From an uncultured Verrucomicrobiae bacterium (GTDB taxonomy: Bacteria; Verrucomicrobiota; Verrucomicrobiia; Limisphaerales; UBA11358), in contig CAWJHF010000009.1 in assembly GCA_963842445.1 (NCBI GenBank), forward strand, positions 89,086-153,085: DNA of 64,000 bases. The letters are read 5' to 3'. Positions 1,925 to 63,370 of the stretch are shown in pieces; the stretch's first letter is position 1, and each line of letters opens with the position of its first letter. A program made the translations under genes and the position numbers. The notes beneath the pieces are model-generated. The model did not search any database, was not told the origin of the DNA, and saw only the letters and a list, made by a program, of their open reading frames with translations.

Positions 1925-1947
1925 CCGGTGGTCGGTCCCGGGGCCGT

Positions 1948-2490: not shown

Positions 2491-2525
2491 GGATTGAATT
2501 GAAGCCGGATGAATCGCTTGAAAAC
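2491..2525. repeat. Short intergenic repeat (family K, ggattgaattgaagcc...gaatcgct)
   Basis: Near-identical copy at 4535-4570. Confidence 0.7.
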
Positions 2526-2573
2526 CCGGCTAAATTTTTCCGCGGGACATGCTGAAGGTTTACAGGAGGAATT

Positions 2574-35627: not shown

Positions 35628-35798
35628 AATTGCCGAATCCACAGGAATGCAGTTCATCCGCGGCATACCGGCAACAGCTCAGGTTTGAAGCGATTCATCG
35701 CCTTCGTCACGCTGCCCGGTTCAGCAATCTGTTTCGCCGGGTCGAATTCCAAATTGCGGAATCGAATTGGGGGACTTTTGACCTTGTGCTTGGGGTGC

Positions 35799-36734
35799 TC
35801 AACGCGCCAAGGCGGTTTTTTTGCGCCTTGTCCGGCTTGGTTTCCGTGCGGCAATTTTCCTGACGCGCACGAAAGCGGTTTGCCGCGATGTCTCGCCGTT
35901 TTTTTGCGGCGCGGTCAGCAAATGGTCGCCGTTCTTCTCCGCCGGTTCCGAGGCCGGTTCCGGTGTTGGTTCCCGCGTGATGATTGCCGTGTCGAACCCG
36001 GCAACCACCGGCCACGATCCCCCACCGTTTTCGTGCGGGGCGGGTGGTGGGTGTTCGCCGTTTTTCTCCGCCGGTTCCAGTGCCGGTTTCTGCGCGGCAA
36101 TTTCCTGGTCGAATCCGGCGACCACCGGTGGCGGTTCCTCGCCGTTTTTGGGGGGGGCGGTCAGCGGGTGTTCGCCGTCTTTCTCCGCCGGTCCCTGTGT
36201 CAATGCGGGCTGCTGTTCGACAGTTTCTGTTTGCGGCCCGGTTACGGCCGGCGGCAAGGTTTTCTCGTTTTGACGCGACGCGGCCAGCAGCGCCTGCAAA
36301 TTTTTCTCCAGTTGTTCCTGCACCTGTTTCCGTTCGGCAATTTCTGTTTCATGCCGGTTGATCGTCTGGCGCAATTTCTCGTTGGTTTTGATCAATTCCA
36401 CCCACTGTTCCTTGACTTGCAATTCCCATTTGTCCAGCGCCTGTCGTTTCGCCGCCTCTTCCTGCAGGAAGGTCTTGAGGCCGGGATAAAAACGCACCAC
36501 TCCCACAAGCAGCAGGAAGGAGTAAATGATGTCCACTTTGATTCCCCACTGGGCGTCGGCGTCAAGTGGTTCCACCGCGAGGAACAAACTCATCAGCGCC
36601 ATAAATGAGAGCGCGCCAAAAAGCAACCACCTCATGAGCGTTGATTTGAAAAGCCGACCCAGGCACAGCGCGTAACAAGCCACCCCAAACTGCAGCAGCC
36701 CTGATGTCAGGCGGAAAATGTCGATGTCGTTCAT
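35799..36734 (-). CDS. Membrane protein with coiled-coil and Pro-rich tandem-repeat tail
   Basis: ATG at 36734. Three or four TM helices, heptad-like segment (LDKWELQVKEQWVELIKTNEKLRQTINRHETEIAERKQVQEQLEKNLQ), then 2.5 copies of PAEKxGEHP...NGE..VVAGFD. Confidence 0.6.
   Translation of the reverse strand: MNDIDIFRLTSGLLQFGVACYALCLGRLFKSTLMRWLLFGALSFMALMSLFLAVEPLDADAQWGIKVDIIYSFLLLVGVVRFYPGLKTFLQEEAAKRQALDKWELQVKEQWVELIKTNEKLRQTINRHETEIAERKQVQEQLEKNLQALLAASRQNEKTLPPAVTGPQTETVEQQPALTQGPAEKDGEHPLTAPPKNGEEPPPVVAGFDQEIAAQKPALEPAEKNGEHPPPAPHENGGGSWPVVAGFDTAIITREPTPEPASEPAEKNGDHLLTAPQKNGETSRQTAFVRVRKIAARKPSRTRRKKTALAR
35880..36191. repeat. About 120-bp tandem coding repeat (2.5 copies)
   Basis: Repeated ...ttctccgccggttcc...ggtcgaa(t/c)ccgg(c)gaccaccgg... 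units, mirrored as PAEK(D/N)G(E/D)H peptide repeats. Confidence 0.75.
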
Positions 36735-37200
36735 ATTGATATGGCAACCTCTGCCCGGGTTAGAGCAGGAAAAAGGCCAAAGAAACTGTAACGGATGCAA
36801 GGGCATACGACGTGGAAAAAGGCACCCCATACCTCCCCAAATGCCAGAATCTGGGACAGTGGTAAACTGGCCAGGGCGCACGTTCCTACAGTGTCGGCAA
36901 CGCGACCAGCGGCTCAAAGGAAGCGGCAAAGTCCATGAAAAGCAAATAAGCGCAGGACCTGTGTCGCGGTCTTTGCCAGGTGCGAAACCCCGGCACGCGG
37001 CGTCAGGGCATCCTTGCGGCGGAACTTTTCCATATGCTTTTCGGCAAAAGGCGAGAACGATGAATCCAATCTGACCGCCGACAAATACCATCAAGCGGCT
37101 CGAAAAAACGAAGTCACGTCAAGCCGGACTTGCCATTCCTGCAATACCCCTCCACCACCAGAAGCGCACGGTTCCAAAACTCTCGAATGCCAATAAAATC

Positions 37201-37370: not shown

Positions 37371-37715
37371 ATGAAAAAGATACTTGTACTTGCAACCGTA
37401 TTTGGCTTCGCCGCCGTGCTAAATGTCTCGGCTGCGGATGCCAAAGCAAACTGGGATTCGCTCTGCGCCAAGTGCCACGGCGCGGACGGTAAGGGCCAGA
37501 CCAAGATCGGCGCGAAGCTCGGCGTCAAGGACTTCACGGATGCCAAGGTTCAGGCGGCCATCAAGGATGAAGACGCGGTGAAAGCCATTAAAGATGGCAT
37601 CAAGGATGCGGATGGCAGGACGAAGATGAAGGCGTTCGTTACCGGGGTGGATACCCCCCTATCGGACGACGAAGTCAAGGCTCTGGTCGCCTACGTCCGC
37701 GGTTTGAAGACGTAG
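37371..37715 (+). CDS. Monoheme class I c-type cytochrome (paralog 1)
   Basis: Signal peptide, single CAKCH motif, distal Met candidate (TKMKAF). Very similar in sequence pattern to the 40760 ORF. Confidence 0.85.
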   Translation: MKKILVLATVFGFAAVLNVSAADAKANWDSLCAKCHGADGKGQTKIGAKLGVKDFTDAKVQAAIKDEDAVKAIKDGIKDADGRTKMKAFVTGVDTPLSDDEVKALVAYVRGLKT

Positions 37716-37801: not shown

Positions 37802-38254
37802 ATGCGCCCCTTCAAATTGCCACCGCAAATTCTGCGATTGGTTTTGCTGACGCTGGCCATCGTCGGGTCATATCTGGTCGCACGGGCTTTCCTTACCCCG
37901 CCGTCCTTTGGTCAATACGGCTGGTATCGTGGAGCGGCACTGGCGGAGATTGCGGCGCGGCCACCCGTATTTGCAGGCAAGCAGGCGTGCGATGAATGTC
38001 ACTCCGACATCCTGCACAAGCTGGCGGCGGATGCGCACAAGACGCTTTCCTGCGAGGCCTGCCACGGCGTGAGTCGGGAGCATTGCGACAACCCGGACAT
38101 CCTGCCGGTCAAGGCAACCGGCAGCTATTGCCTTCGTTGCCACGAAGCCAATCCGGCCCGTCCGGAGTGGTTCAAGCAAATCGTCGTCAAAGATCATTAC
38201 AGCGGAAAGTGCACCGACTGCCACCTGCCGCATCAACCCAACCACACCCCATGA
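37802..38254 (+). CDS. Membrane-anchored tetraheme c-type cytochrome
   Basis: N-terminal TM helix, then CDECH, CEACH, CLRCH, CTDCH. Confidence 0.85.
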   Translation: MRPFKLPPQILRLVLLTLAIVGSYLVARAFLTPPSFGQYGWYRGAALAEIAARPPVFAGKQACDECHSDILHKLAADAHKTLSCEACHGVSREHCDNPDILPVKATGSYCLRCHEANPARPEWFKQIVVKDHYSGKCTDCHLPHQPNHTP

Positions 38255-39060
38255 AAACTCAAATCAGCCGGCGCAGCGCGCTCGCCAAACTGGGCGGCGC
38301 TCTGGCGGGCGTGCTCACCCTGTCGGTCGCGCGCAAGGCCAAAGCGGTGGTGCAAAAAGTATTCGTGTCCTCCGGCGCGCCCAAGGGCTACGACCCGACC
38401 AAGCATAAATGGCTCATGTGCATTGATGACAACAAGTGCATCGGCTGCGGGCTTTGCGTGGAGGCGTGCAAGCGGGAAAACGGCGTGCCGGAGGGGCCTT
38501 ACTTCCGCACCTGGATTGAGCGTTACATCATCCCCAAGCCGAAACCGGGCTCGGACCAAACCCGCGGTGAGGCGCTGGTGGATTCTCCCAACGGCGGGAT
38601 GCACGGTTTCCCCGAACCGCCCTTGCCGAAGGATCAGATTGAGCACGCGTTCTTCGTCCCGAAGCTGTGCAACCTGTGCGAGAATCCGCCTTGTGTCCAG
38701 GCATGTCCCGTTGGCGCGACATTTCGCGCGCCGGATGGCGCGGTGCTGATTGACCCGAAATACTGTATCGGCTGCGCCTTTTGTGTTCAGGCCTGTCCTT
38801 ATGGCTCCCGGTTCCTGAATCCGGTTACGAAGACCGCCGAAAAATGCACCCTGTGTTATCATCGCATTACGCGCGGATTGAAGCCGGCCTGCGTCGAGAT
38901 TTGTCCGGCGGAGGCGCGCATATTTGGCGATTTGAAAAACTTGCCGACCGATGATCCACTCCGGAAATTTTACGAAAAAAACCGGGTGCAGGTGCTCAAG
39001 CCGCATCTGGGCACCGAACCCCGCGTGCTCTACGCCGGCTTGGACAAGGAGGTAAGGTAA
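38251..39060 (+). CDS. Tat-exported 4Fe-4S cluster protein (NrfC/PsrB/HybA-like)
   Basis: ATG overlaps the upstream stop (ATGA). Tat leader SRRSALAKLGGALAG. Four Cys clusters, e.g. CIGCGLCVEAC, CNLCENPPCVQACP, CIGCAFCVQACP, CTLC...CVEICP. Confidence 0.88.
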   Translation: MKTQISRRSALAKLGGALAGVLTLSVARKAKAVVQKVFVSSGAPKGYDPTKHKWLMCIDDNKCIGCGLCVEACKRENGVPEGPYFRTWIERYIIPKPKPGSDQTRGEALVDSPNGGMHGFPEPPLPKDQIEHAFFVPKLCNLCENPPCVQACPVGATFRAPDGAVLIDPKYCIGCAFCVQACPYGSRFLNPVTKTAEKCTLCYHRITRGLKPACVEICPAEARIFGDLKNLPTDDPLRKFYEKNRVQVLKPHLGTEPRVLYAGLDKEVR

Positions 39061-39061
39061 T

Positions 39062-40297
39062 ATGACTGGCGAGGTAACTAATATCGTCGTGGAGGCGCTG
39101 CCGCAGTTTGAGGGGTATGTGTATCCCAATGAAGCCAGCTTTCACCCGGTCTGGAGCACGTTGATTGTCATTTATCCCTACATCACCGGACTGGTGGCGG
39201 GTGCCTTTATCATGGCCTCGCTGGTGCGCGTGTTCAATGTCAAGGCGCTGGCACCGGTGTATCGGCTCTCGATGTTGACAGCACTGGCGTTTTTGCTTTG
39301 CGCCACCTTGCCGCTGCTGTGTCATCTGGGGCATCCCGAGCGGTGCTATGAGATCATGATGACACCGCACATGACTTCGCCCATGGCGATTTTCGGCTTC
39401 GTCTATGCCTGGTATTTGATGGCGGTCCTGCTGCTGGAGCTGTGGTTTGATTACCGTCAGGACTTCGTGAAATGGTCAATAAGCACGTCTGGCTTCAGGG
39501 GGATCCTCTATCGGGCGTTGACCTTGGGTGTGACCGATGTGTCAGAGCAAAGTGTGCGGCTGGATATGAAGATGGAGTGGATCCTTTCGATTGTCGGAAT
39601 TCCATCAGCCTTTCTGTTGCACGGTTATGTCGGTTTCATTTTCGGCTCAATCAAGGCCAATCCCTGGTGGGGCAACGTGCTAATGCCGATCATGTTTATT
39701 CTTTCAGCCATCGTGTCGGGCATCGCGCTTTGCGTGTTCAACTACATCGTTCTGACTTGGATTCGCCGCAAGACCGTGGATATGCGCTGCCTGGACACCA
39801 TGGCGATGTTTCTCTTTTACGCGCTGGTGGTGGATGCCGTCGTTGAAGGGTTGGACGTGCTCCATCGCGGCTATGCGGCGGAGGAGGGGTTCGCGGTGTT
39901 GCAGACCATGATCCGCGAGAAACTCTTTTACACGCTGAATGTCGGCCAGGTGACCATTGGCACGTTGGTGCCGTTGTTGCTGCTGGGATCGCTCCAACTG
40001 CTGCGCCGGCGCGTGCCGGAGCTGATGCGGCGGCGCATGATTTTCGGCAGCGGGGCGATGATCCTGGTCGGCGTGCTGGCGATGCGTTGGAATGTCGTCA
40101 TGGGCGGCCAGTTTTTCTCCAAGAGCCTGCGCGGCGTGATGAGTTACAAAATGGAGTTTGCCGGACAGGAAGGCTGGCTCATCAGCGCCGTCATTATGTG
40201 CCTGCCGTTCATCATTCTGACGGTGCTGGTGAAACTGTTTTTGTCCGAGCGATTGCAAACCAGTGAACACGTGCCGCCGAACAGTTCCACAACATAG
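39062..40297 (+). CDS. NrfD/PsrC-family integral membrane quinone-interacting subunit
   Basis: 411 aa, about 10 TM helices. Start is 1 nt after the FeS gene stop. N-terminal WSTLIVIYPYITGLVAGAF pattern is typical of NrfD-type proteins. Confidence 0.8.
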   Translation: MTGEVTNIVVEALPQFEGYVYPNEASFHPVWSTLIVIYPYITGLVAGAFIMASLVRVFNVKALAPVYRLSMLTALAFLLCATLPLLCHLGHPERCYEIMMTPHMTSPMAIFGFVYAWYLMAVLLLELWFDYRQDFVKWSISTSGFRGILYRALTLGVTDVSEQSVRLDMKMEWILSIVGIPSAFLLHGYVGFIFGSIKANPWWGNVLMPIMFILSAIVSGIALCVFNYIVLTWIRRKTVDMRCLDTMAMFLFYALVVDAVVEGLDVLHRGYAAEEGFAVLQTMIREKLFYTLNVGQVTIGTLVPLLLLGSLQLLRRRVPELMRRRMIFGSGAMILVGVLAMRWNVVMGGQFFSKSLRGVMSYKMEFAGQEGWLISAVIMCLPFIILTVLVKLFLSERLQTSEHVPPNSSTT

Positions 40298-40759: not shown

Positions 40760-41089
40760 ATGAAAAAACTACTCGTTCTGGGCATCGCGGCAATGACCGT
40801 CGCAGCACTGTCCGCTCGCGCGGAAGACCCGAAGGCCATCTACGAAAATAATTGTGCCAAGTGCCATGGCGCTGATGGCAAAGGTGATACCAAGATAGGC
40901 AAGAAACTTGGCGCGAAGGATTATACCGATCCCAAAGTCCAAGCAGAATTGAAGGACGATGCCGCGTTCAAGGCAATCAAAGAAGGATTGAAAGACAAGG
41001 ATGACAAGACCCTGATGAAGCCAGCTGAAGATCTGTCCGACGGCGACATCAAGGGATTGGTCGCGTACATACGGACGTTTAAGAAGTAA
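40760..41089 (+). CDS. Monoheme class I c-type cytochrome (paralog 2)
   Basis: Signal peptide, CAKCHGADGKGDTKIGKKLGAKDYTD, TLMKPA, C-terminal LVAYIRTFKK as in paralog 1. Confidence 0.85.
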   Translation: MKKLLVLGIAAMTVAALSARAEDPKAIYENNCAKCHGADGKGDTKIGKKLGAKDYTDPKVQAELKDDAAFKAIKEGLKDKDDKTLMKPAEDLSDGDIKGLVAYIRTFKK

Positions 41090-41290: not shown

Positions 41291-42760
41291 ATGAATAACG
41301 AGAACGCGGGAAAGCCGCCTCGCCGGCCGTCCCTGCTGCAAAATTGGATGAGTTTGACTGGGCTGGTCGTTGTGATCGGCAGCCTGTTCTCGTTCTTCAT
41401 GTTGCTCATGCTGGATGCCGTCGCGCACTTTTCCAATCCTTACATCAGCATCCTGACTTGGATGGTGACGCCCGGATTCCTGATTAGCGGGCTGCTTCTG
41501 ACGCTGATTGGGGTGCTGCGCGAGCGGCGCAGACGGGCAAAGACCACCTCCTGGATATCGGTGGTGCAAATTGATCTTTCGCGCCCGCGTGACCGGCGCA
41601 TCCTTGTCACCTTCGTCATCAGCAGCCTGCTATTCATCATGCTTTCGGCGGTGGGCAGTTACAACGCATTTGAATTTACGGAATCGGTTCAGTTTTGCGG
41701 CGAGACCTGCCACGGTGTCATGAAACCGGAATTGACGACCCACGACCACGGGCCACACGCCCAAGTGGCCTGCGTGGCCTGCCACGTCGGTCCGGGAGTC
41801 AATTGGTTTGTCCGTTCGAAACTGTCCGGTTCCTACCAGGTCTATGCCGTCGCCTTCAACAAATATCCGCGCCCGATTCCGACGCCCATCAAAAACCTGC
41901 GGCCCGCCCGGGAAACCTGCGAGCAATGTCACTGGCCGCAGAAATTCTCCGGCAACCTCGACCGCACCTACAATTATTTCCAGGACGACGAATCCAATTC
42001 ACCTTATTCCATCCGGCTCTCGATCAAAATCGGCGGCGCCGACCCCACCCGCGGCCCGGTCGGCGGCATTCACTGGCACATGGTCGTGGGTAACGAGGTG
42101 GAATACATTGCCACGGATGAGGCCCGGCAAAAAATTCCCTGGGTGCGGATCACCGACCGACAGGGCGTCGTCACGGTTTACAAGACCAGAAATTTCACCA
42201 ACGACATCTCCCGCTTTGAAATCCGCAAAATGGATTGCATGGATTGCCACAACCGTCCGTCGCATCGTTACGTTCCGCCCGACCAGGCTGTTAATCTGGC
42301 CATGGAACTCGGCCAGATTGACCGCACCCTGCCTTGGATCAAGACCAACGCTGTCTTTGTCCTGACCCGCAAATACGACAACGACACCCAGGCGCGCGAC
42401 GGCATCGCCACTGCGCTGGCGGAGCGGTATCCCAATGATCCGCGCATCCGCGACGTGATCCCGGTGGTGCAGCAGATTTACCGCGACAATTTCTTTCCCG
42501 AAATGAAGGCCGACTGGAGCGTTTATCCGGACAACCTCGGCCACATGATCTGGCCCGGCTGTTTCCGGTGTCACGACGGCAACCACAAGGCCGACGATGG
42601 CCGGACCATCAAGGCCAACGATTGCAACGCCTGCCACACCATCCTCGCCCAAGGCACCGGCGCGGAATTACAGCAACTGACCCCGGGCGGCCAGCCCTTC
42701 AAACACACGGGTGGAGATTATGACCTTTCCTGTTCAGACTGCCACACCGGCGGACCATAG
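41291..42760 (+). CDS. Seven-heme inner-membrane c-type cytochrome with NapC/NirT-like N-terminal module (ImcH-like)
   Basis: Three N-terminal TM helices. CGETCH, CVACH, CEQCH, CMDCH, CFRCH, CNACH, CSDCH. Confidence 0.75.
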   Translation: MNNENAGKPPRRPSLLQNWMSLTGLVVVIGSLFSFFMLLMLDAVAHFSNPYISILTWMVTPGFLISGLLLTLIGVLRERRRRAKTTSWISVVQIDLSRPRDRRILVTFVISSLLFIMLSAVGSYNAFEFTESVQFCGETCHGVMKPELTTHDHGPHAQVACVACHVGPGVNWFVRSKLSGSYQVYAVAFNKYPRPIPTPIKNLRPARETCEQCHWPQKFSGNLDRTYNYFQDDESNSPYSIRLSIKIGGADPTRGPVGGIHWHMVVGNEVEYIATDEARQKIPWVRITDRQGVVTVYKTRNFTNDISRFEIRKMDCMDCHNRPSHRYVPPDQAVNLAMELGQIDRTLPWIKTNAVFVLTRKYDNDTQARDGIATALAERYPNDPRIRDVIPVVQQIYRDNFFPEMKADWSVYPDNLGHMIWPGCFRCHDGNHKADDGRTIKANDCNACHTILAQGTGAELQQLTPGGQPFKHTGGDYDLSCSDCHTGGP

Positions 42761-44874
42761 GTTGTCGGCGTTCATCGCTGGCATCCTTATCCTGTGCTGC
42801 CTGCCGGTCGCATCGTCGGCTTCGGTGGCCACGAATCTGGCGAATTCGGATTGCTTGGATTGCCATACCGATCCTTCCAACACCCGGAAAGTGGATGGCA
42901 AAATTGTCCCGCTTGCAGTTTTTCCCACCAACAGCTTCGCCCGGTCTGTCCATTCCATGCTCGATTGCACGGACTGTCACACCGGCGTCAAGGAACTCGT
43001 CCACGGTCGCCAAACTGCCGCCGCCGGATTGCACCGGCTGCCATGAAAAGGAGGGAAAGGATTATGCGGCCAGCATCCACGGCGTGAGCCACGCGCTCGG
43101 CGCGTCCGGGGCCGCCAATTGCTGGGACTGCCACGGTTCGCATGACATCCTGCCGGTCAAGGACCCGACATCGCCGGTCTTCAAACTCAACCTTCCCAAA
43201 ACGTGTGCCAAATGCCACAACAACCCGGCCTTGACGCGGGAGTACGAGATGAAACATCCCGAGGCGGCGGCGCAATACCTCGACAGCATCCACGGCCGCG
43301 CTTTGCTCAAGATGGGACTCATCGTCGCTCCGTCTTGCAACGACTGCCACGGCACGCACGACATCAAACGGTCTGTGGACCGCGACTCGCCCATCAACCA
43401 TGCCAACGTCGCCAGAACCTGCGGCAAATGTCACGTCGGCATCGAGGAAACCTACAACCAAAGCGTTCACGGGCAGTTGCTGGCCAGGGGCGATTCGCGC
43501 GGACCCGTCTGCACGGATTGCCATACCGCGCATGACATCGAAAATCCCGAAGGCAACAACTTCAAGGCCATCAGCGACGCGCGCTGCGGCAAATGCCACG
43601 CTGACCGGCTGGAACATTATCGCGACACGTACCACGGCAAGGCCATGGCCCTGGGCAAACCCAACGCCGCGCCTGCCGTTGCCGCCTGCTACGATTGCCA
43701 CGGCCATCACGACATCCTGCCACCCTCCAATCCTGCGTCGCATCTTTCAAAAACCAACATCCTCGCCACCTGCCAGCAATGTCATCCCGGCGCCACCATC
43801 GGCTTCACCGAATACAAGCCGCACGCCAACCCGATGGACAAAAAGAATTATCCCCTGCTCCACCTGGTTTTCATGGGCATGACCGGCCTGCTCATCGGCA
43901 CGTTCGCTTTCTTCGGCCTGCACACCCTCATGTGGCTCGTCCGCGCTATTTATCTTTACCTGCATGATTCAAAGAAGTTCCGCGAAGCGAAAATCGCGAC
44001 GCAGACGGATGGCGAATGGTTCACCCGTTTCATGCCCTTCGAGCGGCTTCTGCATTTCATGGTGGTGACCAGCTTTCTGCTGCTGGTCGTCACCGGCATG
44101 CCTTTGAAGTTCTACTACACCGGCTGGGCCAAGGCGATTTTCGCGGTCATCGGCGGACCGGAAACCGCGCGGACGCTGCACCGGTTCGGCGCGGTGGTGA
44201 CGTTCATGTATTTCGGCCTGCACTTGGCGTCGCTCATCGGCAAGGCGTGGAAAGGCCGCAAATCCGTGCGCGGCGCGGACGGCAAATTCCATTTCAAGCG
44301 TCTCTGGCAGGTGTTGTTCGGGCCTGACTCCATGATGCCGACCCTCCAGGACTGGCGGGATTTCGTCGCGCACAACAAATGGTTCTTCGGTAAGGGTCCC
44401 AAACCGGAGTTCGACCGCTGGACCTATTGGGAAAAATTCGATTACTTCGCCGTGTTCTGGGGTGTAGCCATTATCGGCGCCTCGGGGCTTATCATGTGGT
44501 TCCCGACGTTTTTCACGCGGTTCCTGCCGGGCTGGATCATCAACATCGCCCTGCTGATCCATTCGGACGAGGCGCTGCTGGCCGCCGGCTTCATCTTTTC
44601 CATCCATTTTTTCAACACCCATTTCCGCATCGAGAAATTTCCAATGGACACCGTCATCTTCTCCGGCCGCGTTTCCAAGAACGAGATGCTGCACGAGCGC
44701 AAACGCTGGTACGACCGGCTCGTGGCGACCGGCCGGCTGGACGACCACCGCGTCAAGGACGAATGGTTGCGCTGGAAAAACATCGCGCGGTCGTTCGGCT
44801 ACTTCTTTTTCGGTCTGGGCATCCTGCTGCTGCTGCTGATCATCTACGCCATGTTCACTCGGCTGGCACACTGA
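42720..44874 (+). CDS. Eleven-heme c-type cytochrome fused to a b-type cytochrome membrane domain (CbcL-like 1), with reading frame interrupted near 43005-43010
   Basis: ORF 42720-43046 has a signal peptide plus CLDCH and CTDCH. ORF 42895-44874 has 9 CXXCH motifs plus a 5-6 TM FdnI/HydC-like domain with conserved His. The two frames join colinearly with the paralog at 45061. Confidence 0.75.
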
Positions 44875-44910
44875 AGTTAGGGGCTGGCATCTTGGCTCTG
44901 GGTTCTGGGG

Positions 44911-44950
44911 TAAATCCGCGTCCATCCGTGTTCATCCGTGGTTAAATTTT
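44911..44950. repeat. Short intergenic repeat (aaatccgcgtccatccgtgttcatccgtggttaaa)
   Basis: Internal catccgtg duplication, related motif at 25062-25090. Confidence 0.55.
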
Positions 44951-45060
44951 TTGTCTCTGCCTCCGTTCGTGTGTTTGGTGGTTGTCCCCTCCGGCAAAAA
45001 AGGGCAAAGGGCCGCCAAACCAGGTGGAGTCCCATGTCCCTTTCCACCTGATATTTATCC

Positions 45061-46735
45061 GTGATGCAGCCCTCGCGATTTCTGTTCATCAGCATCCTGA
45101 TCACGACGCTTGCTCATCCGGCCTTCGCCGGCCTGAAAAACAGCGACTGCATGGATTGTCATTCGGATAACACCCTCGCCATCACCAACGCCGCCGGCCG
45201 GGCCATTTCCCTGTTCGTGGATGAGGCCAGACTCAAGGCTTCCGCCCACAAAACCAACACCTGCGTCAGTTGCCACGCCGACGTCACCGTCAAACATCCC
45301 GACGACAATGTTCCACTCAAGCCCGTCAACTGCGCCACCTGCCACGAACAACAGACCGAAAGTTACAACGCCAGCGTGCATGGACTGGCGGCCAAAGCCG
45401 GACACCGGGACGCGGCCACCTGCCAAGACTGTCACGATTCCCATGAAATCGTCCCGGCGAATCTGCCGGCCTCGCCACTGCATTACTCGCGTTTGGCCCA
45501 GACCTGCGGCGCGTGCCACGACCAGGAAGTCAGGGATTGGGCGATGAGCGTGCATGGCCAAGCGCTGGCAGCGGGCACGCGCGACGCGCCCACCTGCACC
45601 GATTGCCATTCCGAACACAAAATCCAAGCGTTGAAAAACACGTCACCGGAAGTTTCCGCGGAAGTGTGCAGCCGTTGCCACGCCTCGGAACGGCTCAACA
45701 CCAAGTACAATCTGCCGGCTGACCGGGTGAAGACCTTCTTTGAAAGTTATCACGGTCTCGCGGTGCAATACGGTTCGACCGTCGCCGCCAACTGCGGCAG
45801 TTGCCACGGCTACCACAAAATCCTGCCCTCGACCGACCCCCGTTCCACCATCAACAAGGCCCACCTCGTCGAGACTTGCGGCAAATGTCATCCGGGCGCC
45901 GACGAGAAGTTCGCCTCCGGCAAAATCCACGTGGACCTGGCCGCCGGCAACGGCGGGACCGATTTCTCGGCCAAAATCAACCGGTGGGTGCGCCGGGTTT
46001 ATCTGGTCCTCATTTTCGGCACCATCGGCGCCATGTTCATTCACAACGCGCTGTTGTTCCTGCGCAAGGTCGCCGCGCGCTATCGCGTGGCCGTGCGACC
46101 AGTGATGCGGATGAGCCTTGCGCAACGCTGGCAACATTTCGTGCTGGCGGCCAGCTTCATCATCCTCGCTGTCACCGGGTTCGCGTTGAAGTTTCCGGAT
46201 TCGTGGCTCGCGCGGGCGCTCGGTTCCAGCGAACCGTTCCGGCGCTGGACGCATCGCATCGCCGGCATCGTGCTGCTGCTGGTCGGGCTCTGGCATTTGA
46301 TTTACCTGCTCAGCTCGAAGGATGGGCGGCGGCTGGTGTGCGATTTGTTCCCGGTGAAAAAGGACATGGCCGACGTTCTGGGCGCAAATCCGCTATCTGC
46401 TGGGTTGGAGCACCGAGAAGCCGAAGACAGGCCGGTTCGGGTACGCAGAGAAGCTGGAATATTGGGCGGTGATTTGGGGCACCATCATCATGGGCGTGAC
46501 CGGGCTGGCGATCTGGTTCAAGCTGGACGTGACCCGGTTCCTGCCGCGCTGGGCCGTGGATGTGGCATTGACCATTCATTACTACGAAGCTGTGCTCGCC
46601 TGCCTGGCGATAATCGTGTGGCATTTCTACCACGTCATCTTCGACCCGGACGTTTACCCGCTGAACCCAGCCTGCTGGGACGGCCACGTGTCGGAAGAAT
46701 GGCAAAAGCACGAGCATCCGCTCAATAATCACTGA
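45061..46735 (+). CDS. Nine-heme c-type cytochrome fused to a b-type cytochrome membrane domain (CbcL-like 2), with reading frame interrupted at about 46375
   Basis: Signal peptide. CMDCH, CVSCH, CATCH, CQDCH, CGACH, CTDCH, CSRCH, CGSCH, CGKCH. TM domain begins in frame 1, but after 46375 the sensible sequence (FWAQIRYLLGW...EYWAVIWGTIIMGV...) lies in another frame ending at 46735. Confidence 0.75.
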
Positions 46736-46758: not shown

Positions 46759-47736
46759 TCAGCGTTTGCGGGCGTGGTAACGCCCGCGCGGTTCAGCCAA
46801 GGCCATCGTAAGTTGGCTTTCTTCGACAGCTTCTTGCGGATAATCGCTCAAATCGAATTCAAGCTCATCACCCTCAAAGCTCGGATAAAGCGCGGCAAGC
46901 TTCGGGATGGCAGCCCCGGCGAGGCGGAAATAGTCTTTGTCAATTTCGATCCCAACTGACCGGTAGCCGACAGCTTCGGCAGCAGCGATGGTTGAACCGG
47001 AACCCATGAACGGGTCGAGCACCGTCCCCTCGCCCAAGGGCAGGAGTGCGCGCACAATAATACGCATGAAATGCTGCGGCTTCAGGCACGGGTGATCCGA
47101 GATGGCTTCTTCACGTTTCGGGGTGCGACCACTTGGCACGACTTCGGGAAACGGTTTGTCGGTGGAGAGGCGCCGCAAACCCCCTGTCTTCCACTTTCGC
47201 AAGTTCTCGGCCACCGTCCTTTCGGCGAGTGGCTTGCGAAACAGCATCCATGGTTCATAAGCGCCCTTTGGCGTAACGCAGACTTCCGGGAATTCCTTCT
47301 CGGCATTCTTGGGACGGTCGCCACCACGGAAGCCGAAGTATAGCCGCATGACGGCAGGGCGAACCTCGTAACCGGCTTCGGCCATCGCTCCCTGCACGTG
47401 ATGCTGGAGGATTGGGTGACCGGCCACACAAACATGCGCGCCGGGTACGAGAACATCGAGAAGAAGTTTTCCCCAATCGCGGAAGAACGCCCGGAGGTTC
47501 TGCTTCTCCTCGTCCGTCAACACAGTGAACCGGGGCAGCGGATCGCGTTTGTGTCCGCCGATCATGGGGGGCAACCGCCACACGCCACCGCGTCCGTTGC
47601 GCAACTTGGATAATTCTTTTTCGGAGAACTCGATGAGTCCGTAAGGCGGGTCGGTGCAGACCGCATGAATGCCCTGCGGCGCACAACCGCGCAGCCAATC
47701 AAAGCAATCCGCGAGGTGTATCTCGTACTTCCTCAT
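46759..47736 (-). CDS. Beta-class amino DNA methyltransferase (N6-adenine or N4-cytosine)
   Basis: Motif IV TDPPYG near the N-terminus and motif I VLDPFMGSGST near the C-terminus. Confidence 0.88.
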   Translation of the reverse strand: MRKYEIHLADCFDWLRGCAPQGIHAVCTDPPYGLIEFSEKELSKLRNGRGGVWRLPPMIGGHKRDPLPRFTVLTDEEKQNLRAFFRDWGKLLLDVLVPGAHVCVAGHPILQHHVQGAMAEAGYEVRPAVMRLYFGFRGGDRPKNAEKEFPEVCVTPKGAYEPWMLFRKPLAERTVAENLRKWKTGGLRRLSTDKPFPEVVPSGRTPKREEAISDHPCLKPQHFMRIIVRALLPLGEGTVLDPFMGSGSTIAAAEAVGYRSVGIEIDKDYFRLAGAAIPKLAALYPSFEGDELEFDLSDYPQEAVEESQLTMALAEPRGRYHARKR

Positions 47737-47748
47737 CGCGCGCAAGTT

Positions 47749-47803
47749 TCAACTATAGTCGAAAGACAATCAAGCCTGTTCTTGGTATCAACTATAGACG
47801 AAA
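47749..47803. promoter_or_regulatory. Two copies of a 16-nt box between the divergent methyltransferase and nuclease genes (C-box-like operator candidate)
   Basis: TCAACTATAGTCGAAA (47749-47764) and TCAACTATAGACGAAA (47788-47803). The core ACTATAGT is palindromic. Confidence 0.55.
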
Positions 47804-48699
47804 TGGATGCCAAGACGATCATCGGCAATTTCGTCCGCCGTCTGCGCGAGCAAAAGAATTTGACGCAGGACGAACTGGCCGCGCGCACCGGCATTACATA
47901 CCAGTATCTATCCGGTCTGGAGAACGGACGCGAGAATTTTTCCATCGGCATCCTCGAATCGCTTGGCAAGGCACTGGATTGTCCGCTCCCACAACTTGTG
48001 GCGGGCGCGTTCGCCGGGCCGCCGGTTTTGGCACCGGTCGAAGCCAATCCCGACTATTTCCGACCGCAAGCACCATTGCCACCCGGCCTCAAGATCGCTC
48101 ACCTGCAACGCGCAATGGACGAGACCCAGCGGATTGTCTCGTTGATTAATGCAAATTTGTTGGCCAGCGGCGCGAAACCATTGCCGAAATATATTCAGGG
48201 CAATAATTTCAGCGGATTGGTCTCCAATATCCTCTGCGACGCGATTCATGAAAACTCGCCGTACAAACATAATTCCGACCAAGCGTATCCAGACTTAATC
48301 AATCCAAAGGTTTCCGCGAAAGGCAAGCCGGTCGGCTTGGAGGTCAAGTCAACAATCCAAATCGGCAAGGGCGGAGAAAGCCACAACGGACATTCCGGTT
48401 GGCATCTCGTGGCGTGCTTTGCCATTGATCAAAAAACGGGTAACATTCGTTTCGTTCACGTCATGCTGGCCGTGCTTAATGGTCACAACCGGCCTGAGCC
48501 GGATTGGGTGTATGTGGGCAGCAAGGTGAACGTTGATACCGGCAGTCGTCGAACCGAGACATACAACACGACGTTGATCGGCACGACAAAACTACGGGAT
48601 GGCTCAGTTTATCTCGACCCCATCTCAATTAATTTCAAACGCTGGCGACAGAGTCAACGCGGACCCGTACCGCCATTTTCGATCTTTGCCGAACCATGA
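47803..48699 (+). CDS. HTH (XRE-type) domain fused to a PD-(D/E)XK-like nuclease domain; candidate restriction endonuclease
   Basis: N-terminal LREQKNLTQDELAARTGITYQYLSGLENGRENFSI. Later YPDLINPKVSAKGKPVGLEVKST fits PD...(E)xK. Confidence 0.6.
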   Translation: MDAKTIIGNFVRRLREQKNLTQDELAARTGITYQYLSGLENGRENFSIGILESLGKALDCPLPQLVAGAFAGPPVLAPVEANPDYFRPQAPLPPGLKIAHLQRAMDETQRIVSLINANLLASGAKPLPKYIQGNNFSGLVSNILCDAIHENSPYKHNSDQAYPDLINPKVSAKGKPVGLEVKSTIQIGKGGESHNGHSGWHLVACFAIDQKTGNIRFVHVMLAVLNGHNRPEPDWVYVGSKVNVDTGSRRTETYNTTLIGTTKLRDGSVYLDPISINFKRWRQSQRGPVPPFSIFAEP

Positions 48700-48720: not shown

Positions 48721-50648
48721 CTAGCCAGCGCTCGCGCCGGTTTGAAAACTGCGCCACAAATTTACCGGCAACAGGCCAAGGAGGATGAGGCTGACCTGGG
48801 TGGCGATAAAGAGCATCAGCCATTTGAACGCCGCGTCGGTGAATCCGTAGCTATGCAGGCCGATGCCAAGCATGTTCACGCCGAACCATGACCAACTCGT
48901 GACGATGTTGCCAAACACGGCCAAGTTCATCAGGCCGCGTTCACGCACGAGACCGCCCCAGCGCGCGTGCAGAATGGTCGCATTCCAGAGCACGATGAGC
49001 AGCGCGCCGTTTTCCTTCGGTCCCAGCCCCAGAACCGGCCCCACGATTGGTCGGCCCAGATGCCGCCCAGCACCGTGCCGACAAAGCTGAACAACGTGGC
49101 AAAACAGACGATGCCATAAACCATCCGCGCCAGTGATTTGGCGGTTTCCGCCGAAAGCGTGGTGGTGAACACGCCACGCAGGATGTAGATGATGGCCAGA
49201 AAACCCGCCACAAAGGTCGAGGCGTAGCCGAGGGTGACGGTGACAACGTGGGTGGCGAGCCAGAAATTCGTGTCGAGCACGGCGCGCATCATTTCCATGG
49301 TGTCGCCGCCCAACGCCAGGTTGTGCGCAATGATCTGTGTGACGAAACCGACAAACGCGGCGACGACGCAGCCGATGCCGTCGTGATAAATTTTCTCGAG
49401 GACCATTCCGAGGATGACCGCGGCCCAGCCGATGAAAATGGCCGAGGAATAAAGGTTGGTCACCGGCGGCCGGCCTTCGAGATACATTCTAAAAACGAGG
49501 CCGAAGGTGTGAATCACCCACGCCAAGATCACGAGATAAAACGCCGAACGCCGGAGCCAGTCGGACAGGTTAAACCAAGAGAGCAACGCCAGCACCAGGG
49601 CGAGTACGTAGATGACCGTGGCCTTGTAGAACGGCTGGAGGGTGCTGAAAAAACACTCCTTGTTCGCCTTGCGCACCTGCGGCGCGAAACGATCGGCCAG
49701 CCACGCGTGGTATTCACCGACCAAGCGGTTGAAATCATCCGGCAACCCGGAACGATAGGCGGTGACCATCGCGGCATAATATTTGGTCGCCGGGTTGAGT
49801 TCGCCCGTGCGCGCGGTCTGCATGAGGTTGGTGCCGATATTCTGCCAGGCGTCGCGCGGCAGGCCGGGATCCACGGGCGGAATGGTCAGCGGCAAAGCAA
49901 AACGCGCGACGGTCTCATAGTTGCCCATGAAACCGAGGAGGGTGTTGAAGGCGTTCTGGTCGAATTTCTGGCCGGCGTCACGGGCATTCACGGCGGCGAT
50001 GCCCGGCGCGATGCTCTTCTGGTAGGCGTCCAGTTCCGCCGCAAAATCATCCGAAGCCGGTGGTTTGAGGCTGACTTCGAGCCGCTGGTACAGATTCATC
50101 ATCTCGTACAGTTTCATCAACTGCGATTCGAAGACGGTACGTTTGGAAGCATCAATCGGGTCGATGCGGGCAGCCTGCTTTTCGATTTCATCTGCCTGCG
50201 GTCGGAGTTGGTTAAAGGAATAATATCGCTGACCGTCGGTTAACTTGAGCAATTCGGTCACCTCGTTGTTATCGATGCGAAAAACTTTCAGGTCATCGGC
50301 TTGCTCGGGTTTCATCATCATTTCCAACAACCATTCCGTGGCAGAGAGCGTATTGGTTGTGACCCACCATTCATCGTTGGATGCTTTCGGCACATCGAAC
50401 AATGTGGCAAAGATTCTATTTGCACCGGTGAGCCGCCGCGCTTCCTGAACGGCGACCGTGGATTTGGTGCGGATTTGGAGCAACGAATTGCGGGCGATGG
50501 AATCGAACGGCTGGAACCGGCCATTCATGAGCACGGGCAGGCGGCCAAATTCGCGGACGTGAAAATCGGTTTCGGGCGGCTGGCGCAATCCGGACAAAGC
50601 CCAGACCGCCATCACCACGACCAGAATGAGGGGAATCCACCTTTTCAT
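48721..50648 (-). CDS. ccsA: System II cytochrome c biogenesis protein CcsA/ResC with N-terminal periplasmic extension, with reading frame interrupted near 49017
   Basis: The Trp-rich heme-handling motif is split: WADQSWGRFWGWD ends frame 1, and PKENGALLIVLWNATILHARWGG continues in ORF 48721-49044. Confidence 0.8.
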
Positions 50649-50799: not shown

Positions 50800-52044
50800 T
50801 CATGACTTCTTTTTCTCCTTTCCGGGAGCGCCGGGGTCACGCCGGCCGGACAGGTTCACACGAACACCGCTGGCCACCGGCGGAACGGCGGCAGGTGCCG
50901 GAACGACGATGCGTCGTTTCAAAAAAGGAATCAAGTGGCTGAGGAACTGGATGACCAAGCCGGTCGCCACGAGTACACACGAGAAATAGGGAGTGAGCCA
51001 GCTTGGATTATGCACCACCTGCAACACGCTGCCGTGGTCGTCGGGGTCGAAGCTGGCCTGATAAAACGTTTCACCGGCGTAACGCAGCGGGTTGTTCATG
51101 AAAATCCGTACTTCACGGTCCTCGCCGTTCTCCAGGTTTTGCAACCGGACACGGCTGGAGAAATTTTTGGGGATGTCGGTGCCGGGATATTTGTCGTGCC
51201 GGAATTCGATGAGATGGAGGCTGAACGGCAGGTAATAACGTTCCTGTCGCAGCAACAATTCATAGGAACGGTTGTTGTAGGTGAACGCTTGCGGCTGGTC
51301 CAGCCAGGCAGAAACGAGGAACGTGCCCAGCGAGCCTTGCGGGGTGGTGATTTCGACGGTGGCCGACGGCATATCGAGCCGGTTCATTTCGGTTTCGCGC
51401 GGGACTTCGCGCCACCAGATGCCAGAACCAAGGCCGGTGGTGGTTTTGACCGGCTCATAACCCGGCTGGGACTGCTGTTCGAGCAACGAATTGGCGTAAA
51501 AGGTTTTCACCCGCGCACGGAACGGCATTTCCGGGTCGCCCACTTCGCCGTGCCGGACGAGCAGGCTGCAGGGGATGGCGACGACCTTGTCCGAGTCCGG
51601 ATCGATCGTGTCGATGACGGCCAGTTCGTAGGCGCGTTCGGCCTCGGAGTAATTTTTTGTCTCGCCGATGCGCAGGTGCAGGGCGCTTTCCCGGGACAGG
51701 AAATCTGTGAGCATCTGCCCGACCAGCAACAGCACGACGCCAAGATGAATCAGCAGAATGCCGATTTTTCGTTTGCCAGGCTGATAATAGCGGAAGTGCG
51801 CGACGAACAGGTTGATGAGCAGCACGGTGCCGATGAAGTAACCGCCGGGAAAGATGGGAATGTGGAAACTGGAGCCGTCTGGTGTCCAATAGACGAAAAA
51901 GCTGCGGAAAAATTCGTTCTGGGCCTTGAAGAGGCCGAGATGCACCTGGGCGATGGTGCCCCAGAATACAATCACGCAGCCGAGCGCCAGGCACGTGACG
52001 GTGAGCTTGAGCGAGGAAAAAAAACGGTATAAGCTCGCGAGCAT
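50800..52044 (-). CDS. ccsB: System II cytochrome c biogenesis protein CcsB/ResB
   Basis: N-terminal FFSSLKLTVTCLALGCVIVFWGTIAQ, large periplasmic loop, C-terminal TM helix, His residues in ResB-like positions. Confidence 0.8.
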   Translation of the reverse strand: MLASLYRFFSSLKLTVTCLALGCVIVFWGTIAQVHLGLFKAQNEFFRSFFVYWTPDGSSFHIPIFPGGYFIGTVLLINLFVAHFRYYQPGKRKIGILLIHLGVVLLLVGQMLTDFLSRESALHLRIGETKNYSEAERAYELAVIDTIDPDSDKVVAIPCSLLVRHGEVGDPEMPFRARVKTFYANSLLEQQSQPGYEPVKTTTGLGSGIWWREVPRETEMNRLDMPSATVEITTPQGSLGTFLVSAWLDQPQAFTYNNRSYELLLRQERYYLPFSLHLIEFRHDKYPGTDIPKNFSSRVRLQNLENGEDREVRIFMNNPLRYAGETFYQASFDPDDHGSVLQVVHNPSWLTPYFSCVLVATGLVIQFLSHLIPFLKRRIVVPAPAAVPPVASGVRVNLSGRRDPGAPGKEKKKS

Positions 52045-52045: not shown

Positions 52046-53263
52046 TCAATATTTCACGCCTTGGACGAATTGAGTGAACGCGGCCTTCTGGCTTTCGACG
52101 ACTCTGGGGTCGCCCATGAGCTTGTAAAACCACGTCTGGTCGGATTGAGGAACGACCACGCCCACAAGCCGGGTGGGCAGGCCGGTGCGTGCATCCGTGC
52201 CACTCAGGTCCACCAGCGACGCCTTGCCGACCGCCACGTCAATCGTTGTGACCGATTGATTCACTTCGGCTTCGGACCACGGGACCAGGCCAAGCTGGCC
52301 GCGCCAGCGGTTGATGTTGCCAATCAAACCACCACCTTCACCGGCAGCACTGCTGACGTTGACAGCGGCGGTGGCCCCGCCATCGCCGGTGAGCATGAAT
52401 TTGGCGACGAGGAATTGTCCGCCGGAAACCTCCTGCCAGCCAGCCGGCACCTGCCAGTTCGGCTTGCCTTCACTTGAAATCGGGGCGGCGGCCAGAGACG
52501 CCCCCACGCTCGTGTCGCCGATGGCCGGATGCCCCGGCGGTAAAGCGGTCTGCGTCGGCGCGGCGGTGAAATTCAGCGATTTGAGGAAGGCGACGAACGC
52601 TGGTTTTTGTTGTTCAACCAAGCCAGCGTCACCAGTCATTTTGAAAAACCAGGCCATGTCGTTACGATGCTGAATCACACCCAGAATACGTTCCGCGCCA
52701 CCGCTGCCCGGGTTTTGACCGGCGATGTCGTAGAGCTGCGCGGGCTGGCCGGCGGCTTCAACGTCTTCAGCGGATTTTTTCAGTTCTTCCGGCGACACGG
52801 GTGATAATCCAACCTGGCCGCGCCAGCGGTTGACATTGGCTGCGTCGCTGCCGGCCAAGCCGGGCAGGGGAATAACACTGACGTCGGCTGATTTGCCGTC
52901 CGCGCCGGTCACTTTGAATGACGCCACGCGCATTTCACTGGGCGGGATCTCGGTCCACCCGTCCGGCGTTTTCCAGGTCAACTGCGGCAGGGCGGATGCC
53001 GCAGGTAGCGCGGCCGCGGATGCGGACGAGATGTCCGGATGCCCCGGCGGCAACGACGGGTTGGGCGAATCGGTGGGCAGGGCGGGTGCGGTTTGCTGCT
53101 GTGGCTGGTCCTGGTCCTTGGCGACGCGATAAACCTTGACTTCATCGCGGTGGCAACCGGCGGCGAGGAACAAGAACGGGACCAGGACAGAGAGCCGCCA
53201 AAGGGGTTGAGGAAGCCGCTGCACGAGAGTGGCCGTGAACTTTTTAATCGGATTTCTTTTCAC
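52046..53263 (-). CDS. Lipoprotein with internally duplicated domain (function unknown)
   Basis: Lipobox LFLAAGC. Two homologous halves, each starting LPPGHP(D/A)I and containing (V/I)NRWRGQ(V/L)GL. Stop is 1 nt before the ccsB start. Confidence 0.65.
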   Translation of the reverse strand: MKRNPIKKFTATLVQRLPQPLWRLSVLVPFLFLAAGCHRDEVKVYRVAKDQDQPQQQTAPALPTDSPNPSLPPGHPDISSASAAALPAASALPQLTWKTPDGWTEIPPSEMRVASFKVTGADGKSADVSVIPLPGLAGSDAANVNRWRGQVGLSPVSPEELKKSAEDVEAAGQPAQLYDIAGQNPGSGGAERILGVIQHRNDMAWFFKMTGDAGLVEQQKPAFVAFLKSLNFTAAPTQTALPPGHPAIGDTSVGASLAAAPISSEGKPNWQVPAGWQEVSGGQFLVAKFMLTGDGGATAAVNVSSAAGEGGGLIGNINRWRGQLGLVPWSEAEVNQSVTTIDVAVGKASLVDLSGTDARTGLPTRLVGVVVPQSDQTWFYKLMGDPRVVESQKAAFTQFVQGVKY

Positions 53264-55527: not shown

Positions 55528-55545
55528 CGGCTGCCGGGGCGTTGG

Positions 55546-56406: not shown

Positions 56407-56472
56407 GCGGATTTTTAGTTGTCGGTCATTTCACGCATATTCGGAAAACGCGCCGTTGTCGTGGCCTGCCGC

Positions 56473-58191: not shown

Positions 58192-58459
58192 ATCGCATTT
58201 GAGCCGTCTCCCATCCTGTGCCGGGCAGTGCGGCGCGCGTCGAACCATTGGATGCAACTTTGCAACGCCAGAACAAAGAACAACAAATGGAACTTTGTTC
58301 AACATATTCTTCGCTTGAAGGATACTCCCGCCCGGCGCGCGAACCAACCTTCAATTGCTTCATACTCGTCAAAAATTGCCTACCCTGGCTGGCGGCATCA
58401 CCTGCCGGTACAGCCTGCCCGCCCGCCCCGGAATTTTCTAAAATTGACAGACCACAATT

Positions 58460-59416: not shown

Positions 59417-59646
59417 TTTCTTGCCATCCGGCGCGGAGCTTCGGCGCGAAAAACCATCACCTCAAAAAAGGCGCCACGATGCGAAGGGACAGCGCGCTGG
59501 GCACGTCGTCAAAGCTGCTCGCTCCAAGCTTGCGCCGCCTTCATTCATTCCGTTGCGCCGGGGTGTTGAGAGTCCTCCCACCTTTACCGGCAAACAAAAA
59601 CCCCTTCCCGTTGCCGGGAAGGGGGTGGTCAATTGATGTTACCCGA

Positions 59647-63160: not shown

Positions 63161-63370
63161 GTCCCCGCCCTCCCTGAGGATTCGACGCCGCAGCGCACCG
63201 GCGCGGGGGAAACGAGCCACCGGAGGCGCATCTCGCGCCTTCCACCGATGCGGCCAAGCCGGTCAAGGCCACATCGAAGCTCGCCTTTTAGATTCACGGG
63301 ATAACTCTAGGGCGCGGGGCAAAAGTTGCTGCCCATCCATTGGCAACCGTTTTACATTTATTGTCATTAG

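Follow-up and report, generated by a model that had tools for sequence, protein, structure and literature searches.

Which enzymes carry respiratory electrons out of the quinone pool at the inner membrane of Verrucomicrobiota is the question raised by a row of cytochrome genes in an uncultured Verrucomicrobiae bacterium (UBA11358; GenBank assembly GCA_963842445.1). The DNA analyzed, referred to in the following as the window, comprises 64,000 nucleotides of contig CAWJHF010000009.1 (positions 89,086 to 153,085), and all coordinates below are those of the window. Three consecutive genes, g1, g2 and g3, extend from 41291, exactly the first start codon of the g1–g3 row, to 46735, exactly its last stop codon, and every gene between 37371 and 46735 lies on the forward strand. 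An earlier note, made from the letters of the DNA, had proposed that g1 encodes a relative of the Geobacter inner-membrane cytochrome ImcH and that g2 and g3 encode relatives of CbcL. Clusters of "novel porin-MHC" genes (MHC, multiheme cytochrome) have been described in bog Verrucomicrobia, with the inner-membrane step left unspecified as "ET in IM" (He et al. 2017). Our analysis suggests that the row is probably the inner-membrane end of a Verrucomicrobiota gene island for extracellular electron transfer (EET), and that g1–g3 encode ImcH- and CbcL-type quinol:cytochrome c oxidoreductases. The three genes are not a chance assembly of motifs, since thousands of full-length homologues exist.

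g1 and the ImcH family

The g1 gene is a single intact open reading frame (ORF) of 489 codons. The features that the earlier note had listed for it, namely three transmembrane (TM) helices, a heme module with FCGETCH and CVACH, seven hemes and a NapC/NirT match, were all found. Hydropathy analysis placed the three hydrophobic helices at approximately residues 22–40, 52–76 and 104–122. The first heme site, FCGETCH, is of the CX3CH type (C136–H141, read as C136GETC140H141), and CXXCH motifs follow at residues 161 (CVACH), 210, 316, 424, 445 and 481, giving seven heme sites in all. The Pfam model Cytochrom_NNT (PF03264, NapC/NirT) matched residues 102–192 with E = 6e-10 and 39.6 bits, compared to a cut-off of 24.1, and the sole sequence relative in the PDB was NrfH (2j7a_C, E = 0.018). 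NCBIfam contains no model for ImcH or CbcL, and every match to that collection was far under its cut-off.

The ImcH family has been defined by three TM helices with a CX3CH site behind the last one, six CXXCH sites and homology to NapC/NirT (Levar 2014; Zhong & Shi 2018; Pimenta 2023). Judged by its sequence, g1 has every one of these features. For direct comparison, Geobacter-group ImcH proteins were recovered by a motif scan and stand in for GSU3259, the Geobacter ImcH, which was itself compared through its published coordinates. Against three such references (L269, labeled "uncultured Geobacter sp.", L315 and L237), g1 showed 39–40% identity over ≈490 residues, which is its full length (39%, 492 residues and E = 1e-127 for L269; 40% and E = 1.5e-134 for L315). 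These values fall within the 31.5–49% published for ImcH homologues outside Geobacter (Zhong & Shi 2018, PMC6295460). The L269 protein has its heme sites at residues 132, 157, 206, 312, 430, 450 and 488, and carries E127, H137, K173 and Q179 at the numbers published for GSU3259.

The likeness between g1 and GSU3259 extends to the order and spacing of the parts. Both have three N-terminal TM helices (residues 13–35, 45–67 and 100–122 in GSU3259; Zhong & Shi 2018, Table S3, PMC6295460), a CX3CH site right after the third, and six further CXXCH sites, and the heme positions are collinear, with g1 offset by a constant +4 through heme 4. In ImcH, heme 1 is His/Gln-ligated and flanked by E127, K173 and Y188 (Pimenta 2023). 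The surroundings of this heme are kept in g1, where E131, H141, K177, Q183 and Y192 correspond to E127, H137, K173, Q179 and Y188 of GSU3259; H141, K177 and Q183 are invariant across 78 homologues from several phyla. The two proteins differ in length (489 and 507 residues) and in the gap between hemes 4 and 5, which is nine residues shorter in g1. They also differ in genetic context: GSU3259 is monocistronic (Levar 2014), whereas g1 stands in an operon-like row, after a gene for a monoheme cytochrome c and before the CbcL-like genes.

The family is large, with 747 clusters at 50% identity (E ≤ 1e-30), and the pattern of one CX3CH and six CXXCH sites was also present in the complete, untruncated ORFs among 80 relatives. 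Some family members have unusual arrangements. The L237 sequence, a Desulfuromonadales metagenome-assembled genome (MAG), has two tandem full-length imcH genes at 981–4417, encoding 509 and 511 residues with the same heme spacing, and ImcH-like proteins of ≈940 residues, possibly fusions, occurred among the representatives (P0252, P0266 and P0352). A 1005-residue ImcH–CbcL "fusion" in L066 was rejected as an artefact of the ORF-start rule in GC-rich DNA.

g2 and g3 as bc-cytochromes

The earlier note had counted 11 and 9 CXXCH motifs in g2 and g3 and had described both as fused to an FdnI-type membrane domain. The counts and the domain were confirmed, but only when one +1 frameshift in each gene, which the note did not mention, is read through. 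In the assembled sequence, g2 appears as two ORFs, 42711–43046 and 42895–44874, with the shift near 43009, and g3 as two ORFs, 45061–46728 and 46469–46735, with the shift near 46376–46381. A 2.57-Mb ENA contig (L001) that is 99.2% identical to the window over 21.5 kb is without precisely the extra bases at ≈43009 and ≈46376, so that g2 and g3 are uninterrupted at both sites, and its g3 product (P0121) matches the corrected g3 with 100% identity over 100% of its length. The two assemblies differ by 20 single-base indels over the 21.5 kb, and different genes are broken in each: ccsA in the window (≈49018), and an FeS protein gene and the C-terminus of g2 in L001. Substitutions between them number none in g3 and only five in g2. 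Because the single-base indels are scattered over different genes in both assemblies and g3 is free of substitutions, the frameshifts in g2 and g3 are most likely assembly errors, and the genes were taken as intact in vivo, with a small residual doubt. The split in ccsA is the third frameshift within 10 kb, which suggests an unpolished long-read assembly.

With the frameshifts read through, g2 encodes a signal peptide, 11 CXXCH motifs and six TM helices, and g3 a signal peptide, nine CXXCH motifs and five TM helices, the C-terminal helix being missing. The b-type domain of g3 matched Pfam Ni_hydr_CYTB (PF01292) with 58.7 bits, over the cut-off of 30.1. Reference proteins for CbcL were those of Trichlorobacter thiogenes ATCC BAA-34 (L200) and a Geobacter sp. 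MAG (L111), used in place of GSU0274, the Geobacter CbcL. They came from a scan with the peptide RWTYWEKFD, which g2 shares with the CbcL alignment of Antunes 2022; that alignment was legible in part and used as a lead only. The scan yielded 120 family members, including L200, L111 and L108, the last of which has its nine hemes at the same positions as tabulated for GSU0274.

Lack of similarity beyond the CXXCH motifs, and lack of the four histidines that bind the b-hemes, had been named in the earlier note as results that would speak against its proposal. As with g1, similarity was found over nearly the full length of both proteins. The identity to Geobacteraceae CbcL was 38% over ≈636 residues for g2 (E = 1e-130 to 1e-139) and 28–30% over ≈575 residues for g3 (E = 1e-57 to 1e-79), while g2 and g3 share 30% identity. 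All four histidines were also present in both proteins. In an alignment of the b-domains, the FdnI ligands H18, H57, H155 and H169 aligned with histidines in g2 (H431, H473, H600 and H615, numbered from a TTG start at 42762), in g3 (H359, H398, H506 and H521) and in all Geobacteraceae CbcL proteins. The four were invariant in 46 relatives of g3; in 32 relatives of g2, H473 was conserved in 97% and the other three in 100%. Relatives of g3 also have nine invariant histidines outside the motifs for their nine c-hemes, which fits the c-heme domain of CbcL, where all hemes are bis-His-ligated. Relatives of g2 have ten such histidines for 11 c-hemes, plus a methionine conserved at 91%.

The closest structural counterpart of the b-domains is FdnI, the cytochrome b556 subunit of E. 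coli formate dehydrogenase-N (1kqf_C), which shares the four-helix dihaem b fold and was the best PDB match by both sequence and fold. An AlphaFold2 (AF2) model of g3 was poor (pLDDT 54) and its heme domain unusable, with the b-domain helices at pLDDT 65–79; its best fold match in the PDB was FdnI, a weak match, followed by HyaC. FdnI is a separate subunit of a formate dehydrogenase, whereas here an additional TM helix links the b-domain to a multiheme cytochrome c within one fused protein. Catalytic genes of Fdn or Hyd were not found nearby in the window. The closest solved structure to the heme domains was PDB 28pb_A ("Cytochrome c", 278 residues), matching g3 residues 29–186 with E = 7e-12 and g2 residues 31–168 with E = 6e-5. 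It was considered as a CbcL heme domain and rejected, as its first two heme motifs are 33 residues apart, compared to 23 in GSU0274.

Both proteins share with CbcL the fusion of a multiheme c-domain to a HydC/FdnI-like dihaem b-domain in which the ligand histidines are kept. The g2 protein further shares the six TM helices, the RWTYWEKFD and FGPDS motifs, and a phenylalanine (F610) where CbcL has F525, but it has 11 hemes to the nine of CbcL. In g3, the spacing of the first five hemes (38, 23, 30 and 28 residues) differs from that in GSU0274 (23, 25, 23 and 24), and both the C-terminal helix and the family motif are missing. Neither protein fits the narrow Geobacter CbcL pattern of nine hemes at the GSU0274 spacing. 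Members of the CbcL/MtrH/MtoC family have 3–23 CXXCH motifs, six TM helices (a minority having five or four) and 28.6–100% identity to CbcL, and g3 with its 28–30% lies at the lower edge. The family table of Zhong & Shi 2018 (PMC6295460) already includes OQB93798.1, an 11-heme Verrucomicrobia protein with the heme pattern of g2. In an unbootstrapped neighbor-joining (NJ) tree, whose reference sampling is biased by the RWTYWEKFD scan, g2 fell in a subclade of Verrucomicrobiota and the Planctomycetes–Verrucomicrobia–Chlamydiae (PVC) group within CbcL/MtrH/MtoC. Taken together, the comparisons point to g2 as a CbcL-family protein of a subtype already known, whereas g3 has the design of CbcL but probably belongs to a separate, unnamed subfamily. 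The CbcL architecture claimed for both genes in the earlier note is thus confirmed, with g3 probably falling outside the family as sampled here.

Linkage of imcH and cbcL

To put the row in context, the gene neighborhoods of ImcH relatives were compared in two sets. The first consisted of 80 species-representative loci holding an ImcH relative. In 22 of these, imcH is followed directly by a g2-type gene (gap −61 to +225 bp), and ten have the complete order imcH→g2→g3, while a single locus has g3 alone after imcH. Seven Acidobacteriota loci carry a g3-related 11-heme gene directly upstream of imcH. The order imcH→g2 is also present in a cultured Limisphaera sp. (L039). The adjacency that the earlier note had suggested looking for in relatives is therefore real in part of the set, but it is absent from the two closest relatives, as described below. 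Six of the MAGs with Verrucomicrobiota-like imcH/g2 loci, at 53–69% identity, are "binchicken" MAGs titled Bifidobacterium or Bifidobacteriaceae (L014, L022, L023, L038, L042 and L046); these labels are almost certainly wrong.

The second, independent set comprised 120 loci from other phyla, 84 of which could be evaluated. In 40 of the 84, imcH is preceded on its own strand by a CbcL-like gene that ends no more than 500 bp before it, and in none of the 84 was a CbcL-like gene found downstream. In three Desulfuromonadaceae-type loci, the gene upstream of imcH encodes a protein 70–79% identical to T. thiogenes CbcL, and a Geobacteraceae MAG with the ImcH/CbcL locus tags A2X80_11560 and A2X80_11570 appears in the tables of Zhong & Shi 2018. 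The statement in the earlier note that the two genes are unlinked in Geobacter is true of G. sulfurreducens, but they are adjacent in many phyla, Desulfuromonadaceae included. Linkage of imcH and cbcL is thus the rule and not a peculiarity of this locus, and the one feature confined to a Verrucomicrobiota clade is the order imcH→g2→g3. We found no published description of this linkage in the literature.

The adjacency cbcL→imcH is common across Acidobacteriota, Ignavibacteria, Bacteroidota and Desulfuromonadaceae, and the order is inverted, with a third, g3-type subfamily added, in a Verrucomicrobiota clade. A more speculative reading, less likely than not, is that ImcH and the CbcL-family bc-cytochromes are an ancient, co-transcribed functional pair instead of independent alternatives. 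They might even be joined in a physical supercomplex, or act as a "two-gear" quinol oxidase in which both are obligatory. If so, the unlinked arrangement in G. sulfurreducens would be a derived exception. We did not find this idea stated in the literature, although the tables of Zhong & Shi 2018 contain one instance of the adjacency.

Neighboring genes and a proposed route of electrons

The row continues upstream of g1, and a cluster of maturation and multiheme cytochrome genes lies beyond g3, mostly on the opposite strand (Table 1).

Table 1. Genes of the row and of the cluster beyond it, with the basis of each assignment.
Gene or product	Position	Strand	Basis or remark
Monoheme cytochrome c	37371-37715	+	Pfam
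Membrane-anchored tetraheme cytochrome	37802-38254	+	Pfam/NCBIfam scan
Tat-signal 4Fe-4S protein	38251-39060	+	Pfam/NCBIfam scan
NrfD-type membrane subunit	39062-40297	+	Pfam/NCBIfam scan
Monoheme class-I cytochrome c, 109 aa, signal peptide, CAKCH	40760-41089	+	Pfam Cytochrom_C, E = 4e-13
g1, ImcH-family inner-membrane heptaheme cytochrome, 489 aa	41291-42760	+	Heme sites, TM helices, Pfam, homology
g2, CbcL/MtrH/MtoC-family bc-cytochrome	42720-44874	+	11 CXXCH, 6 TM, FdnI-like dihaem b domain
g3, CbcL-like bc-cytochrome, separate subfamily	45061-46735	+	9 CXXCH, 5 TM, FdnI-like dihaem b domain
ccsA, System II cytochrome c maturation, split by indel at 49018	48721-50648	-	Pfam Cytochrom_C_asm in L001
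resB/ccsB	50800-52044	-	Pfam ResB in L001
Predicted lipoprotein, 405 aa, no Pfam match	52046-53263	-	Internal duplication
MtrB-like β-barrel, 713 aa	53386-55527	-	AF2 model, fold match
Periplasmic octaheme cytochrome, 7 CXXCH + CX4CH	55546-56406	-	Heme motifs
9-heme cytochrome, MtrC/MtrF-type domains	56473-58347	-	Domain match
Unrelated gene	58460-59416	+
9-heme cytochrome, MtrC/MtrF-type domains	59647-62013	-	Domain match
hemA (glutamyl-tRNA reductase), end of multiheme cytochrome cluster	62084-63220	-

Among the genes beyond g3 is one for a 713-residue product at 53386–55527. Its family is annotated only as "hypothetical" and it has no Pfam domain, but an AF2 model (pTM 0.65) formed a β-barrel of 26–28 strands whose best fold match in the PDB was Shewanella MtrB (6r2q_B; E = 3.5e-15, TM-scores 0.62/0.67), ahead of the next by four orders of magnitude, with a sequence identity to MtrB of only 12%. 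Together with the adjacent octaheme cytochrome and the two nine-heme cytochromes, it makes up a putative outer-membrane electron conduit (53386–62013), ≈7 kb from the g1–g3 row. The large MtrB-fold barrel, the adjacent eight-heme periplasmic cytochrome and the surface multiheme cytochromes are features that it shares with the clusters of He et al. 2017 and with Shewanella MtrAB. It differs from those clusters in that, here and in at least ten other loci, the conduit is linked to the monoheme cytochrome c and imcH genes; in these other Verrucomicrobiota loci, the octaheme–barrel pair is contiguous with them.

The product of hemA, at the end of the cluster, catalyzes the first step of heme synthesis. 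The predicted lipoprotein beside resB has an internal duplication ("LPPGHP...", "N(V/I)NRWRGQ(V/L)GL") and is conserved at that place in many relatives. Between g3 and ccsA (46759–48699) are genes for a DNA methyltransferase (N6_N4_Mtase, reverse strand) and an HTH-domain protein (forward strand). Related loci, L003 and L040 among them, have neither gene at this place, and the pair therefore resembles a restriction-modification-type module that was inserted.

Upstream of g1, the same genes precede imcH in many Verrucomicrobiota loci, and in 45 of 78 species loci a homologue of the monoheme cytochrome c gene lies no more than 700 bp ahead of imcH. The product of the gene at 40760–41089 is a likely periplasmic partner. 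The tetraheme cytochrome, 4Fe-4S protein and integral membrane subunit stand in a row as in Geobacter Cbc4 (CbcSTU, GSU0068–0070), a likeness that is architectural only and was drawn from the published description of Cbc4 (preprint 10.1101/2025.04.14.648717). With this module included, the row holds four quinol–cytochrome modules. Before it, on the reverse strand at 35685–37094, is an ORF of 431 codons with a repetitive Pro/Glu/Lys-rich tail ("PAEKNGEHP"-like repeats) and no confident Pfam match, in a region with many overlapping spurious ORFs. The start of g2 overlaps the end of g1. A scan for promoters gave matches at background level (6, compared to 4.7 expected); terminator-like matches numbered 24, compared to 12.6 expected, but were weak and mostly intragenic, with one weak hairpin after g2. 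The scan says nothing on operon structure.

With the gene models, domain architecture, heme and ligand residues, homology to both families and conserved linkage as the observed basis, a route for the electrons can be proposed. The ImcH-type g1 would oxidize menaquinol at a site on the periplasmic side by heme 1 (CX3CH, His/Gln, E131, K177 and Y192) and then relay electrons along its seven c-hemes. In g2 and g3, the FdnI-like four-helix dihaem b-domain would contact the quinone pool and would be wired to the fused periplasmic chain of 11 or nine, mostly bis-His, c-hemes, and the Cbc4-like module may be a further entry from menaquinol to cytochromes beside the ImcH- and CbcL-like enzymes. Electrons would pass to small periplasmic cytochromes, for which the two monoheme cytochromes c encoded in the row are candidates, then through the MtrAB-like octaheme/β-barrel conduit to the surface multiheme cytochromes, and finally to Fe(III) or humic acceptors. 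In Geobacter, ImcH is the menaquinol oxidase required for reducing extracellular acceptors of high potential, and CbcL has its role below −0.1 V. The menaquinol substrate, the direction in which electrons flow, their partners and a division of labor by redox potential are inferred from Geobacter, and the "potential-tuned set" of quinol oxidases suggested in the earlier note would likewise be an extrapolation from that genus. The role in EET is indicated by the MtrB-like barrel, the octaheme and MtrC-domain cytochromes and the CcsBA genes beside the row.

Several observations weigh against this interpretation. The Verrucomicrobiota homologues of ImcH and CbcL are known only as sequences, and the family comparison was made with proxies for GSU3259 and GSU0274. 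The b-domain of g2 scored 23.8 bits with Ni_hydr_CYTB, under the Pfam cut-off of 30.1, and the quick NJ tree puts g3 outside CbcL/MtrH/MtoC, in a sister clade with Acidobacteriota 11-heme proteins. Neither g2 nor g3 is intact as assembled. The closest relatives of the locus (L003 and L040, with 82–90% identity in ImcH) are without both genes, and g2 and g3 are therefore dispensable accessories. Finally, Geobacter ImcH did not interact with the monoheme PccH. Since the carriers encoded beside imcH are monoheme class-I cytochromes, electrons could instead be routed to soluble acceptors of high potential or to oxidases.

This last point leads to the strongest alternative, in which g1–g3 would be general quinol:cytochrome c oxidoreductases, similar to NapC/NirT/CymA or alternative complex III, that feed soluble monoheme cytochromes c and, through them, periplasmic or membrane-bound terminal reductases or oxidases. 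The monoheme class-I gene before imcH in 45 of the 78 loci, with two such genes in the window, is consistent with it, as are the many periplasmic reductases served by NapC/NirT relatives and the imcH→g2 order in the cultured Limisphaera sp. We nevertheless consider it unlikely. In Verrucomicrobiota MAGs with porin–MHC clusters, genes for respiring nitrate, nitrite, sulfate, DMSO or TMAO are largely missing (He et al. 2017). In at least ten loci the octaheme and MtrB-like barrel genes are joined to those for the monoheme cytochrome c and ImcH, and here they are 7 kb away, while no gene for a terminal reductase or oxidase was found in the row.

A second alternative is that electrons flow in reverse, from extracellular Fe(II) or reduced humics through the conduit, with the CbcL/MtoC-like proteins delivering them to a quinone site on the N-side, in the direction of FdnI. 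Homologues in the CbcL/MtrH/MtoC family occur in Fe(II) oxidizers, where they have been proposed as quinone reductases, and FdnI, the fold template, reduces menaquinone. However, bis-His multiheme domains typically have low potentials, neither Cyc2 nor any other iron-oxidation marker was found within the window, and homologues of ImcH are so far known from reducers only, with quinol oxidation the sole role in which they have been implicated (Zhong & Shi 2018, PMC6295460), all of which makes reverse flow improbable. Least likely of all is that g2 and g3 are genuine pseudogenes in a decaying array with ImcH alone functional: both ORFs are interrupted and the close relatives L003 and L040 have lost the two genes entirely, but each interruption is one extra base missing from a 99.2%-identical genome to which g3 shows zero and g2 only five substitutions, and the indels that break the essential ccsA in the window, and the FeS gene and the C-terminus of g2 in L001, are the signature of an error-prone assembly.

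Read as the inner-membrane end of an EET island, the row of this soil or freshwater bacterium forms part of a credible set of components for exporting respiratory electrons, one that will not surprise specialists. Its novelty is modest, because Verrucomicrobia homologues of both families were already catalogued in 2018 (Zhong & Shi 2018, PMC6295460) and the row is widespread and conserved. What is most interesting is the cross-phylum linkage of imcH and cbcL, together with the distinct g3-type subfamily. If the assignment is correct, it would fill the blank inner-membrane step in the EET model for Verrucomicrobiota of humic lakes and peat, and would extend the ImcH/CbcL scheme of Geobacter to an abundant and mostly uncultured phylum of soil and freshwater. 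The occurrence of imcH- and cbcL-type genes as neighbors in many phyla suggests that the two enzymes are used more tightly together than the Geobacter model implies, and the linkage could inform surveys of metal and humic respiration by marker genes as well as experiments on how cells set energy yield against acceptor potential.

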